Assembly: GCF_053078305.1 (NCBI RefSeq)
Contig: NZ_CP166879.1
DNA: 64,000 nucleotides
Reading direction: 5' to 3' (one strand)
Of the stretch, positions 13,269 through 21,715 are shown piece by piece. The notes beneath the pieces are model-generated. The model was not told the origin of the DNA. It was given only the letters and a program-made list of their open reading frames with translations, and did not search any database. Position numbers and translations under genes: made by a program. Positions within the stretch are counted from its first letter, which is position 1, and the number at the start of each line of letters is the position of its first letter.

Positions 13269-13314
13269 TATGCGTTTTTATGCGCATATTATCTTAAATA
13301 CGCAAAAACATGCA
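13269..13314. promoter_or_regulatory. Candidate operator/promoter upstream of the epimerase operon of the PTS island
   Basis: ttATGCGtttttATGCGCAtat and tACGCAaaaacATGCA within 60 bp of the start codon; related motifs recur at 21671..21715. Confidence 0.3.
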
Positions 13315-13330
13315 AAAGAAGGAATTTGAA

Positions 13331-14041
13331 ATGGCTGCCCCGAAAATTGTTTTATCTCCGTCGCTGATGTGCGCGGATTTGCTCAATTTGAGCGATGCGG
13401 TAAAAGCGCTGGAGGAGATTGGCGTCGATGCCCTGCATATTGATCTCATTGATAGCGCTTTCAGCCCCAGTATGCCGCTGGGGCTGGAGACGATTAAGCA
13501 GTTACGTAAAGCGACAAACCTGCCTTTTGATATCCACATTATGTCGATGAATAACGAGTGGTTTATCCAGCAGGTTCTTGAGATTGGCGTGCAGCGAGTT
13601 TCCTTTCACTATGAGACGTCGTTGCACCCTGACAGGCTGGTTAATCTCATTAAAAAACACAATGTTGAAGTTGGCGTGGCGTTAAATCCTGCCACCAGCT
13701 TAACGTCGCTGGATTACCTTCTGCCTTCGCTGGATTACGTTTTGCTGATGCTGATTAATCCGGGCTTTGCGGGAGATAAAAATGAGACACAGGTGCCTTA
13801 TGCCATTGAAAAAGTGCGTAACCTGCGGGAGAAAATTTGCGGGATAGATTCAGGTGCCGCCATCCAGGTCGATGGTCGGGTTTCTTTTGCCTCGATCCCT
13901 GGGCTTATCGCCGCTGGTGCGAATAATCTGGTACTTGGCAGCACTGGGCTGTTTATTAAAGGCGCGACGCTTGCCGACAATAAAACGCAGTTGGATCGCT
14001 ATGTGCGTGAAGGTTTGGCACAGTCAGGAGGCCAGCAATGA
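13331..14041 (+). CDS. Ribulose-phosphate 3-epimerase family protein (AlsE/Rpe-like ketose-phosphate 3-epimerase)
   Basis: 237 aa; ...PSLMCADLLNL...HIDLIDSAF.P... TIM-barrel epimerase signature; AAGGAA RBS 9 nt upstream of ATG. Confidence 0.8.
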   Translation: MAAPKIVLSPSLMCADLLNLSDAVKALEEIGVDALHIDLIDSAFSPSMPLGLETIKQLRKATNLPFDIHIMSMNNEWFIQQVLEIGVQRVSFHYETSLHPDRLVNLIKKHNVEVGVALNPATSLTSLDYLLPSLDYVLLMLINPGFAGDKNETQVPYAIEKVRNLREKICGIDSGAAIQVDGRVSFASIPGLIAAGANNLVLGSTGLFIKGATLADNKTQLDRYVREGLAQSGGQQ

Positions 14042-14595
14042 GTTATCAGACTAATCAGGAAAACGTGCTGGCTGAGTTACGCGCCACGCTGGGAAATATC
14101 AGCGCCGATGAGGTTGAACGCTTAATTGCAAGGATCGAAGCGGCAGAGAACGTCTTTTTTGTCGGCGTTGGCCGGGTGCTGTTGTCATTGCAGGCAATGG
14201 CAAAACGGCTGGCGCATCTGGGTATTAAAACCTACGTCGTTGGGCAAATTACGGAGCCTGCCATCACCGAGCGCGATCTGCTTATCGTGGGTTCCGGAAG
14301 CGGTGAGAGCATGTTTCCTCTCGGCATTGCCAGAAAAGCGAAAAGCTTTCATGCAAGCGTTGTGCATATTGGCGCAAATCCCGAAAGCAGTATGAAAGCG
14401 TATAGCGACCTTTTTGTGCGCATCGGTGTAAAAACCAAACTCAACTTACCTTCTGAAATCCCCTCCATTCAGCCGATGACCTCTCTTTTCGAGCAATCTT
14501 TACTGCTGCTGGGAGACATCGTTGCCCTGGAATTAATCGGCAAGAGAAAAATCAATATGCATGAGCTGTGGCAGTTCCATGCCAACCTTGAATAA
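14038..14595 (+). CDS. SIS-domain sugar-phosphate isomerase (6-phospho-3-hexuloisomerase-like)
   Basis: 185 aa; start overlaps previous stop (ATGA); SIS-type fold pattern VFFVGVGR...LLIVGSGSGES. Confidence 0.7.
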   Translation: MSYQTNQENVLAELRATLGNISADEVERLIARIEAAENVFFVGVGRVLLSLQAMAKRLAHLGIKTYVVGQITEPAITERDLLIVGSGSGESMFPLGIARKAKSFHASVVHIGANPESSMKAYSDLFVRIGVKTKLNLPSEIPSIQPMTSLFEQSLLLLGDIVALELIGKRKINMHELWQFHANLE

Positions 14596-14675
14596 ATGCC
14601 CGCGGCATCAATGATTTCCGCCATATCTGATAAGCCTGTTTTCAGATATGGCGCTTTTTATTTGAAGGAATAACT

Positions 14676-19286: not shown

Positions 19287-20761
19287 GCCGTCGCCTCCTC
19301 ACGTTGAGTAACATTTTCTTGCGTTTTTATATAGGACACAGCCTCATCATAGTCACTTAACTTAATAAAGTTTTTCACCGTCATAAAAACAGTATTTTCA
19401 TTCTCGCAACTTAGTCTTGCGCGTTCGAGTAGTCCGGAAAGCGTAATGACAATATCGTAATCTCTACCTACTCTGTTTGCGGAATCGTTGACAACAGTTA
19501 TGTAATCGAGCCCTTCAGCTTTTAACCGTTTTCGTAAAACAGATGCCCCCATTGCGCTGGACCCCATGCCTGAATCACAGGCAACCAAAATGCGTTGAAC
19601 GGTTTTATTACTGGTTGCCGCCGTCACGTTTGAGATGCCAGGGACAAAGTCGCTAACAGATCTCACCTGACGACCACCGACGATGACCGGATTTTCTTCG
19701 TCATCATCTTCTGAACCGGGGCTAATTTTGAGAATTAACCAGCCAAGTGTACAGGAGACGACAAAACCGGCGCTGATAGATACCAGGTTGGCAATAATCG
19801 CACTTTTAGGCGTCATCATGGCGATGGCGATCAAACTCCCCGGCGAAGCCACACCGATCAAACCGCCGCCCATGATCACCTGTAAGAACAAAGAGACAGC
19901 AAGGCCGCCCATTGTTGCGAAGACTAACAACGGATTAGCCAGTACAAACGGGAAGTAGACTTCACCAATCCCTGCAATACCGGCGATAAACATCGCCATT
20001 GGTGCTGTTTTCTTCGCACGACTACGACCAAACAGGGCTATGGCCATCAATGTTCCGAGCAAGGGACCGTTATTGGTATCCACAAGGAACATAATTGATT
20101 TACCCAATTCAGGAACTTGGGCAAAACCAATTGGCGCGAGAATACCGTGGTTCACCACGTTATTCAGGAAAAGCACCTGTGCAGGAGCCATAAATACTGA
20201 TAATAACGGCAGTAAATTATGACTGGTACACCAGTTCACGCCTGAAGTGATAATAACGATCAGGACGCGGATAACCGGCCCCACTGTCATATAAGCAAAG
20301 ATTGCACAAAGCAGTCCTATTATTCCCAGACTGAAATTATTTACAAACATCTCGAAGCCAGGTTTAATTCGGTGCTGTACTTTCTGGTCAAACTTTTTCA
20401 ATAGCCAGGACGATAACGGCCCCATGACCATCGCGCCGCTTATCATGGTTATTTCAGAACCTACGATGACGCCCATCGTTGCGAAAGCAGCGATGACCCC
20501 TCCGCGCTGACCGTGAATGTTATAACCTGCGGTATATCCAATAAGTAATGGGAAAAGATAATTCAGGATGGGGCCGACCATCTGGCCTAATTTTTCATTA
20601 GGAAACCATCCATTAGGAATGAAGATAGCGGCCATTAACCCCCATCCTACAAAGGCACCCAGATTCGGCATTACCATGCCGCTCATTACTCCACCAAACT
20701 TTCTTATTTTCGCTAACGCAGGGCTATTGGCTATTTTACTGTTCCCCATGGTCGGCTCCAT
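19283..20761 (-). CDS. PTS EIICB component, mannitol-type (MtlA/CmtA-like)
   Basis: 492 aa; N-terminal IIC membrane domain (MPNLGAFVGWGLMAAIFIPNGWFPNE) and C-terminal IIB with Cys motif ILVACDSGMGSSAM. Confidence 0.85.
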   Translation of the reverse strand: MEPTMGNSKIANSPALAKIRKFGGVMSGMVMPNLGAFVGWGLMAAIFIPNGWFPNEKLGQMVGPILNYLFPLLIGYTAGYNIHGQRGGVIAAFATMGVIVGSEITMISGAMVMGPLSSWLLKKFDQKVQHRIKPGFEMFVNNFSLGIIGLLCAIFAYMTVGPVIRVLIVIITSGVNWCTSHNLLPLLSVFMAPAQVLFLNNVVNHGILAPIGFAQVPELGKSIMFLVDTNNGPLLGTLMAIALFGRSRAKKTAPMAMFIAGIAGIGEVYFPFVLANPLLVFATMGGLAVSLFLQVIMGGGLIGVASPGSLIAIAMMTPKSAIIANLVSISAGFVVSCTLGWLILKISPGSEDDDEENPVIVGGRQVRSVSDFVPGISNVTAATSNKTVQRILVACDSGMGSSAMGASVLRKRLKAEGLDYITVVNDSANRVGRDYDIVITLSGLLERARLSCENENTVFMTVKNFIKLSDYDEAVSYIKTQENVTQREEATA

Positions 20762-20776
20762 TTTAGTGATTATTGA

Positions 20777-21592
20777 TTAATGGTGTGATTTACCGCCGGT
20801 GATATTGATCACGGAACCGGTAATGTAGGAAGAACGATCCGAAACCAGGAAAGAAATTAAGTCAGCGATTTCTTCGAGTTTGCCAGGGCGACCAAGCGGG
20901 ATAATTCCTTTGTAATCTTTATGAACATGTGAGGGATCTGTGCCGCGTGTATAAGCAAGAGCACGGAAATTCGCTTCGCTGTTCATAGGAGTAGGAACGT
21001 TTATAGCTGGTTCAACGCTGACAACGCGAACGTTAAACGGGCCCAGTTCTTTTGCCCATGAAAAGGTGAATGCATTGACGGCGGCTTTTGTCGCTGAATA
21101 ACAGCTTTGTCCACGCGATCCCTGAACACCTGCTTCAGATGTCATATTAATAATGACGCCTGACTGCTGTTCGACCATCTGACGAGCTACGGCCTGCGAT
21201 ACCAGGTAAACGGCTTTTTGATTCACTCCCACCATAAAATCAAAGTCGTCTTCACTAAGTTCGTACTCTGGTTTTTGTTTAAATACATCGACCAACAGTC
21301 GCGGGCGGCTGACCCCGGCGTTATTAACCAGGCCATCAATATGACCAAACTTTTCTACGACTGCCTGTGTGAGAGCTTCAACCTGGGTCTTTTTTGTGAC
21401 ATCACATTTTATAAAGGTAATGCCTTCCATCTCATTAAAGCTCTGGTTGGGAGCCAGATCGGCATAAACGACATTTGCGCCATTTGCAGAGAGGTTTTCG
21501 ACCATTTTTTCGCCTAACCCCATACTGCCCCCGGTCACGATCACCACTTTTCCTGAGAGATCCAACCATTTGTTTGCTTGATCCATCTTCAT
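20777..21592 (-). CDS. Short-chain dehydrogenase/reductase (sorbitol-6-phosphate dehydrogenase-like)
   Basis: 271 aa; TGGSMGLG cofactor motif; YSATK catalytic motif. Confidence 0.8.
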   Translation of the reverse strand: MKMDQANKWLDLSGKVVIVTGGSMGLGEKMVENLSANGANVVYADLAPNQSFNEMEGITFIKCDVTKKTQVEALTQAVVEKFGHIDGLVNNAGVSRPRLLVDVFKQKPEYELSEDDFDFMVGVNQKAVYLVSQAVARQMVEQQSGVIINMTSEAGVQGSRGQSCYSATKAAVNAFTFSWAKELGPFNVRVVSVEPAINVPTPMNSEANFRALAYTRGTDPSHVHKDYKGIIPLGRPGKLEEIADLISFLVSDRSSYITGSVINITGGKSHH

Positions 21593-21670
21593 TCTCCACG
21601 TTTCTTCATTGATTAAAGCTTACTGCCAGCATGATTTTTATGCAGCCAGCATCATTTTGTTTACATCTTA

Positions 21671-21715
21671 ATGCGTGTTTTTGCATGTTTGTAATTTATG
21701 CGCAGAAACATGCAT
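21671..21715. promoter_or_regulatory. Candidate operator/promoter upstream of the SDR-PTS operon of the island
   Basis: aATGCGTGtttttGCATG and tATGCGCAgaaacATGCAt about 80-120 bp upstream of the SDR start; motif family shared with 13269..13314. Confidence 0.3.

Follow-up and report, generated by a model that had tools for sequence, protein, structure and literature searches.

Organization of the island and its regulator

The stretch of DNA analysed here (hereafter the window) comprises 64,000 nucleotides of contig NZ_CP166879.1 (RefSeq assembly GCF_053078305.1) and represents a part of an Escherichia coli chromosome, in which a ten-gene accessory island at 13069-21975 replaces the 48-bp rsmJ-dtpB spacer of strain K-12. 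Both promoter regions of the island carry clusters of a common 10-bp box, TGCRTKTTTW, which probably serve as operators of the DeoR-family regulator encoded by the island itself. In agreement with the initial annotation, the genes were found to form two convergent operons:

13331-15326, plus strand: operon 1 (rpe-hxlB-HAD), coding for an Rpe-like epimerase (13331-14041), an HxlB-like SIS isomerase and a HAD phosphatase
15490-21586, minus strand: operon 2 (SDR-PTS), coding for an SDR-family dehydrogenase (SDR, start at 21586), mannitol-family IICB and IIA components of a phosphotransferase system (PTS), DeoR, an MtlD-like dehydrogenase, an HPr-like protein and a GldA-like dehydrogenase
18119-18817, minus strand: deoR, the fourth gene of the SDR-PTS operon, coding for a 232-aa protein of the DeoR/GlpR family, the proposed binder of the boxes

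With a mannitol-family PTS, two polyol-phosphate dehydrogenases (SDR and MtlD-like), an epimerase, an isomerase, a phosphatase and a GldA-like enzyme, the gene set suggests the catabolism of some pentitol or rare hexitol. The whole island is present in 16 of 5,426 complete E. coli genomes, and a regulator-based scan of one genome per species detected it, again in full, in four other enterobacterial genomes, namely those of Salmonella enterica subsp. diarizonae, two Superficieibacter species and a metagenome-assembled genome (MAG) of Enterobacteriaceae. Searches of the literature by island, insertion site and gene combination returned nothing on this locus.

DeoR is the sole regulator encoded in the island. 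It combines a DeoR-type helix-turn-helix (HTH) domain at the N-terminus (HTH_DeoR, PF08220, residues 5-57, 1e-18) with a DeoRC sensor domain at the C-terminus (PF00455, residues 72-229, 4e-38), as expected of a DeoR/GlpR-family protein. Its scores stay under the cut-offs of all named NCBIfam equivalogs (among the closest models, 145 bits vs 300 for GlpR_Halo and 124 vs 260 for AgaR), and it is therefore regarded as an uncharacterised family member and not as an orthologue of E. coli DeoR, GlpR or AgaR. Among the enterobacterial orthologues the regulator is 95-97% identical, and the remaining island proteins are 65-91% identical. A sequence search of the PDB matched the C-terminal domain of E. 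coli DeoR alone (7l6l, E 9e-5) and yielded no DNA complex for modelling recognition. The best sigma-70-like match of the island, TTTACA-18-TATACT (18879->18850, minus strand), lies directly 5' of deoR, and the segment between this match and the start codon (18818-18879) contains an inverted repeat, ATACTCAT...ATGAGTAT; the match may provide basal expression of the regulator or act as a separate promoter or control element for it.

Box layout at the two promoters

The initial annotation described paired ATGCR half-sites with a T/A-rich spacer upstream of both operons. The strings quoted there were all located, with starts at most one base off (ttATGCGtttttATGCGCA at 13268-13286, tACGCAaaaacATGCA at 13299-13314, ATGCGTGtttttGCATG at 21671-21687 and ATGCGCAgaaacATGCA at 21698-21714), and the motif is indeed common to both promoters; the repeating unit, however, is better described as a phased 10-bp box, TGCRTKTTTW, of which two forward and two reverse copies surround the -10 element, and further copies at 13141-13160, 13260-13269 and 21858-21907 had been overlooked. 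Boxes were scored with a 10-bp matrix derived from 32 boxes of the four other enterobacterial species, no E. coli sequence being included in order to avoid circularity. The features are as follows:

13271-13290, plus strand: left unit of the rpe proximal operator, TGCGTTTTTA at 13271-13280 (13.8 bits) and TGCGCATATT at 13281-13290 (11.9 bits); fills the putative -35/-10 spacer; kept in the four other species
13295-13314, minus strand: right, inverted unit of the rpe proximal operator, TGCATGTTTT at 13314->13305 (11.1 bits) and TGCGTATTTA at 13304->13295 (12.9 bits); 14 bp past the left unit, located after the putative -10 and before the ribosome-binding site; conserved
13260-13269, plus strand: weak third rpe box of uncertain status, TGCATGGTTT (7.0 bits); lies 11 bp ahead of the left unit and overlaps the putative -35 TGGTTT at 13264-13269
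13141-13160, minus strand: distal rpe box pair of uncertain role, TGCACGATTT / TGCGTGTTTT (8.8 and 13.4 bits); about 125 bp upstream of the rpe operator
21695-21714, minus strand: left unit of the SDR proximal operator, TGCATGTTTC at 21714->21705 and TGCGCATAAA at 21704->21695; in the spacer of the putative -35 and -10
21672-21691, plus strand: right unit of the SDR proximal operator, inverted relative to the operon, TGCGTGTTTT at 21672-21681 (13.4 bits) and TGCATGTTTG at 21682-21691 (10.8 bits); begins 6 bp downstream of the putative -10, where transcription probably starts; conserved
21858-21907, plus strand: distal SDR box cluster, TGCGTGACTC, TGCGCGAATA, a gap, TGCGGTTTTG and TGCGTGTTTG, with starts at 21858, 21868, 21888 and 21898; lies some 190 bp further upstream than the proximal operator

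In the orientation of each operon, both promoters follow one plan, in which two boxes pointing downstream in the -35/-10 spacer are followed, after 13-14 bp, by two boxes pointing back. The rpe operator reads TGCGT-ttttA-TGCGC, 14 bp, ACGCA-aaaac-ATGCA, and the SDR operator TGCAT-gtttc-TGCGC, 13 bp, ATGCA-aaaac-ACGCA.

Specificity of the boxes

The loose pattern TGCRYNNNNNTGCRY has 10 matches in the window, where 6.6 are expected, and six of the ten lie in the 650 bp that make up the two promoter regions. The tight pattern TGCRYDWWWHTGCRY has six matches against 0.6 expected, a count reached by none of 100 shuffles, and five of the six are located in the promoters. A scan with the matrix (at least 10 bits) gave 49 matches in the window, including 10 in the 648 bp of promoter regions, where 0.5 would be expected. 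Clusters of at least three boxes occur in the window at 13271-13314, 21672-21714 and 21868-21907 only, all of them in the two promoter regions of the island, and none of 500 dinucleotide shuffles of either region attained the observed number of boxes. The locus therefore displays what is characteristic of DeoR/GlpR systems, i.e. repeated short sites overlapping the promoters of operons that adjoin or contain the regulator gene. Isolated boxes, such as the tight match at 15217-15231 in the HAD gene and single high scorers in coding DNA (e.g. at 19320), were treated as chance occurrences, since as many as 49 boxes reach the threshold in the window.

Conservation in Enterobacteriaceae

Conservation of the motif in orthologous promoters was the test put forward in the initial annotation itself, and the outcome was positive: all four boxes are retained in both promoters of the four orthologous islands, with diverging flanks. 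In the SDR promoter, the block starting from CATAGGCAATGCGTTTTTCTGCGCATAAATTACAAACGCGCACAAAAACGCAT is nearly invariant while the flanks drift, and TGCGTTTTTCTGCGCATA of the left unit is unchanged across the four orthologues; the rpe promoter keeps its four boxes with more variation. Invariant columns account for 32 of 43 and 22 of 44 operator columns, compared with 34 of 155 and 12 of 96 of the remaining non-coding columns (Fisher p 4e-10 and 4e-6). The two units are separated by 13 bp, without exception, in the five SDR promoters and by 14-15 bp in those of rpe. Within E. coli the variation is too low to be informative, the promoters being 99-100% identical, and the single change found in a distal box retains TGCRY.

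The auxiliary boxes are conserved to different degrees. Four of the five species have the distal SDR cluster 276-336 bp before the start codon, the MAG having a single box at -301 (locus L005), and a counterpart of the distal rpe pair at a similar position is seen in Salmonella only. The position equivalent to the weak third rpe box is CATAG in all ten enterobacterial promoters. The SDR leader (21625-21658) contains, in addition, a 14-nt direct repeat, GCCAGCATSATTTT, whose copies are 20 bp apart and each include the box-like aGCATSATTT; at this position the orthologues have ACATGC...GCATGT instead, and two of them possess a scoring box at -69/-71.

Promoter elements and CRP-like sites

Beyond the boxes noted originally, both promoters hold a conserved CRP-like site, which refines the earlier description. 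The proposed elements are listed below:

13287-13292, plus strand: putative rpe -10, TATTAT, one base past the inner left box
21721->21716 and 21698->21693, minus strand: putative SDR -35, TAGGCA, and -10, TAAATT
13231-13246: predicted rpe CRP-like site, CTCGA-N6-TCACA, with a weak left half and three mismatches to TGTGA-N6-TCACA; the four orthologues have TTCGA-N6-TCACA, and 10 of 16 columns are unchanged
21739-21754: predicted SDR CRP-like site, TGTGATTCATCTCTCA (minus strand), with one mismatch to TGTGA-N6-TCACA; every orthologue has TGTGA-N6-TCGCA, and 10 of 16 columns are unchanged

A TAnnnT hexamer (TAAATT, TATCTT, TATTAT, TATCAT or TAATAT) stands 1 nt downstream of the inner left box TGCGC in each of the ten enterobacterial promoters, and the centre of the CRP-like site is fixed 42 bp upstream of the same TGCGC. 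Both CRP-like sites of the E. coli island lie exactly 48 bp from the start of the -10, which would place their centres at about -61.5, close to the location expected in a class I CRP-dependent promoter, if the putative -10 is right. The site at 21739-21754 is the only match to the CRP core in the window with at most one mismatch.

Related cassettes of Firmicutes

The scan of one genome per species also revealed a related cassette in Oceanobacillus jeddahense, whose regulator is 59% identical to DeoR of the island, and homologues of the regulator were used to retrieve versions of the cassette from Firmicutes. The box is also present upstream of the SDR-PTS-DeoR cassette in seven Firmicute loci, with regulators of 53-65% identity, so that the box and the regulator co-occur in five enterobacterial and seven Firmicute orthologous loci. 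Matches to the enterobacterial matrix are 11-fold enriched upstream of the first cassette gene in the seven Firmicute loci (25 matches in 1,530 bp vs 152 in 104,110 bp). This recurrence links the motif to the regulator encoded in the cassette and speaks against a host factor of Enterobacteriaceae. The SDR promoters of Firmicutes read TTGACx-1 nt-TGCnn-N5-TGCnn-1 nt-TATAAT, followed downstream by two or three RYGCA boxes, and the register of the E. coli SDR promoter, TAGGCA-A-TGCAT-GTTTC-TGCGC-A-TAAATT, is the same. As textbook TTGACx and TATAAT hexamers occupy this register in Firmicutes, the -35/-10 assignment proposed for E. coli is supported.

In several Firmicute loci a second DeoR paralogue, which the E. 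coli island does not have, is encoded divergently from rpe-hxlB (L011 3860-4627, L012 2591-3373, L007 17385-18017 and L019 4001-4750). L011 and L012 have rpe and hxlB at the head of a common operon with the SDR-PTS genes, the second DeoR (255-260 aa) being divergently transcribed, and in Bacillaceae the second DeoR (249 aa in L019) adjoins an rpe-hxlB-mtlD-IIA-IICB operon. In L007 and L019 the rpe promoter has TGCRY boxes, and in L011 and L012 a different repeat, ACAACTTT...AAAGTTGT. The reading of relatives of ~50% identity (249 aa) as FruR was dismissed on the basis of two loci, of which L019 was the informative one: its protein is the second DeoR of the cassette, and L018 has neither fru genes nor the cassette. 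A 54%-identical regulator was also noticed in a different cassette (L014 1524-7729), together with a glucitol-type PTS, an SDR, a protein resembling orotidine monophosphate (OMP) decarboxylase (HxlA/KGPDC type) and a SIS protein; there, TGCAT boxes with 9-bp spacing surround a TTGACA promoter.

Proposed mode of regulation and alternatives

Judged by how the boxes are arranged and conserved, by their confinement to these promoters and by the fact that they accompany the regulator in different phyla, they are probably operators of an island-encoded DeoR-family repressor with the recognition unit TGCRTKTTTW. Co-regulation of both operons by DeoR, as proposed in the initial annotation, thus gains comparative support from conservation and from box-cassette co-occurrence in Firmicutes, and it is from these data that we infer binding. 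Two boxes would take up the 17 bp that separate a weak -35 from the -10, and two inverted boxes would cover the transcription-start region, so that DeoR, probably as a tetramer or as two cooperating dimers, may keep RNA polymerase off both promoters by steric hindrance. A sugar phosphate generated by the island PTS and dehydrogenases would presumably release the repressor and switch on both operons together, and the system would be autoregulated because deoR sits within the SDR operon. The distal cluster, ~190 bp upstream of the SDR operator, could permit looping, while the conserved CRP-like site near -61.5 in both promoters may add catabolite control or activation.

Several observations weigh against this interpretation. 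A consensus promoter scan called neither promoter in the correct orientation and the rpe -35 matches the consensus at two of six positions; the scan fails because the -35 elements are weak, which is usual for CRP-dependent promoters, and the proposed hexamers are accordingly based on conservation and on the Firmicute register rather than on the scan. The enrichment of boxes in the Firmicute loci is partly inflated by T-rich intergenic DNA. Furthermore, the rpe promoter of L011 and L012 is devoid of boxes and the second DeoR adjoins it, so that the reader of the boxes in these loci might be either of two related regulators, and the distal pair at 13141-13160 overlaps a hairpin, possibly the terminator of rsmJ (-14.3 kcal/mol, z -2.8).

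Among the alternatives, it is unlikely, though the least so, that the boxes are regulatory but DeoR activates, or plays a dual role in which it rearranges on them upon inducer binding. FucR is an activator within the DeoR family, the NCBIfam matches of the island protein include the 'L-fucose operon activator', and the FruR protein of Faecalibacterium prausnitzii shifts its box occupancy when fructose 1-phosphate and HPr2 bind (PMC11906611), the island having an HPr-like protein of its own. The boxes, however, lie between the -35 and the -10 and at the start region, the classic place for occlusion, and the CRP-like site already takes the place of an activator. It appears still less likely that the boxes are bound by a host factor of Enterobacteriaceae, i.e. 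a global or another sugar regulator, given that the box accompanies the cassette in Firmicutes, whose global regulators differ, and that box clusters are found nowhere else in the 64 kb of E. coli chromosome. ACGCAAA is similar to one half of a PurR box, but the PurR reading was rejected, the sites lacking the central CG palindrome of LacI/PurR-type sites.

The inverted repeats could also be imagined to act as RNA hairpins (a terminator, an attenuator or an antiterminator target) instead of protein-binding boxes, as a terminator scan flags 13269-13288 and the entire rpe inverted repeat folds at -15.4 kcal/mol (z -2.2). Such a role is highly improbable and was rejected: the SDR fold is no better than those of shuffled sequences (z -0.9, 33 of 200), the left arm, located before the putative -10, would not be part of the transcript, and the R/Y changes between the arms are not compensatory, TGCAT facing ACGCA and TGCGC facing ATGCA in E. 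coli. No antiterminator of the BglG/PRD type is encoded in the island either. A mere chance resemblance of AT-rich promoter DNA, which the absence of window-wide enrichment of the loose pattern might suggest, is hardly credible and may be taken as refuted in view of the clustering of the matches, the conservation of the boxes across species and the failure of all 500 composition-matched shuffles.

Comparison with known systems

The E. coli regulators DeoR, GlpR and AgaR have several operators per regulon, sites over the -10, distal looping sites used by an oligomeric repressor, a sugar phosphate as the inducer and co-activation by CRP. The island resembles them in its multiple operators, overlap with the -10 and distal sites, whereas the sequences of the boxes differ.

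A closer parallel is offered by FruR of Bacillota, a DeoR-family repressor of a PTS sugar operon which recognizes a phased series of 10-bp repeats with the consensus TGAWWGWTTT across the -35/-10 region; in F. prausnitzii such repeats are also found downstream of the start site (PMC11906611, citing earlier work on Lactococcus). Both systems pair a DeoR-family regulator and a PTS operon with phased 10-bp boxes having TG at positions 1-2 and a run of T at positions 7-10, and TGCATGTTTT agrees with the FruR consensus at nine of ten positions. The island boxes nevertheless do not match TGAWWGWTTT, being similar in shape and distinct in sequence: position 3 is C instead of A and position 4 is R instead of W (C at position 3 in 32 of 32 training boxes, G at position 4 in 26 of 32). 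Moreover, FruR has four tandem boxes where two forward and two inverted ones are found here, and in place of fruK/fruA the neighbours are, in every locus, the SDR, the mannitol-family IICB/IIA and the MtlD-like dehydrogenase; the comparison with FruR concerns boxes and genes. The system seems to work like FruR, yet it is not FruR. The HPr-like protein of the island (16639-16935) resembles most closely the HPr domain of FruB/FPr, and no HPr-like gene accompanies the Firmicute cassettes; by analogy with HPr2 and FruR of F. prausnitzii, it might affect the DeoR regulator.

Meanwhile, the dihydroxyacetone phosphate shunt island of extraintestinal E. coli is controlled by MtnR and CRP, with repression and CRP binding shown experimentally (PMC12632272). 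Like the island described here, it is a strain-specific catabolic island of E. coli with a DeoR-family repressor of its own, a proposed operator repeat over the -10 and a CRP site in the promoter; it differs in its motif, CAAAT-N9-ATTTG, in a class II-like CRP site and in having one promoter vs two here.

With these boxes, an uncharacterised member of a well-known family of regulators gains a probable new operator. The analysis provides a specific, testable operator and a full promoter model for a rare catabolic island of E. coli, and the boxes, by marking genes that respond together, may aid the search for the substrate. Next to FruR, a second type of box becomes available for studying how DeoR-family proteins read phased 10-bp repeats, although no general concept is changed.

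Origin of the regulatory arrangement

The deoR, IIA and HPr genes have a GC content of 38-40% vs ~50% in the flanks. The E. coli island combines a single DeoR with two promoters built on one template, in which 36 of 72 positions are shared and the spacing is identical. Transfer from low-GC bacteria followed by regulatory simplification is a plausible history. A more detailed scenario can be offered only tentatively, as one that is possible though somewhat less than probable: a Firmicute polyol-PTS cassette with two DeoR paralogues would have lost the second of them after transfer to Enterobacteriaceae, and both operons would have been put under one template (CRP site, weak -35, two boxes, -10 and two inverted boxes, with the same spacing in ten promoters), the box being a natural C-for-A variant of the FruR box. 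If so, the FruR box and its C-variant would form a pair suited to examining how the HTH domains of the DeoR family read 10-bp repeats. To our knowledge, no structure showing this reading is available yet.

Other features of the island

At the island junctions (13040-13146 and 21940-21980), the last codons of rsmJ and the stop of dtpB are unlike those of K-12, and AACTAAAACA, which follows the rsmJ stop in K-12, is present again at 13137-13146. The insertion site at rsmJ is common to the islands of E. coli, Salmonella diarizonae and the MAG, and the Superficieibacter island is located elsewhere. A pair of E. coli repetitive extragenic palindromic (REP) elements, forming a bacterial interspersed mosaic element (BIME), lies at 15355-15460 between the convergent HAD and gldA genes, that is, within the horizontally acquired island, and accounts for the ~40 places per genome matched by megablast.

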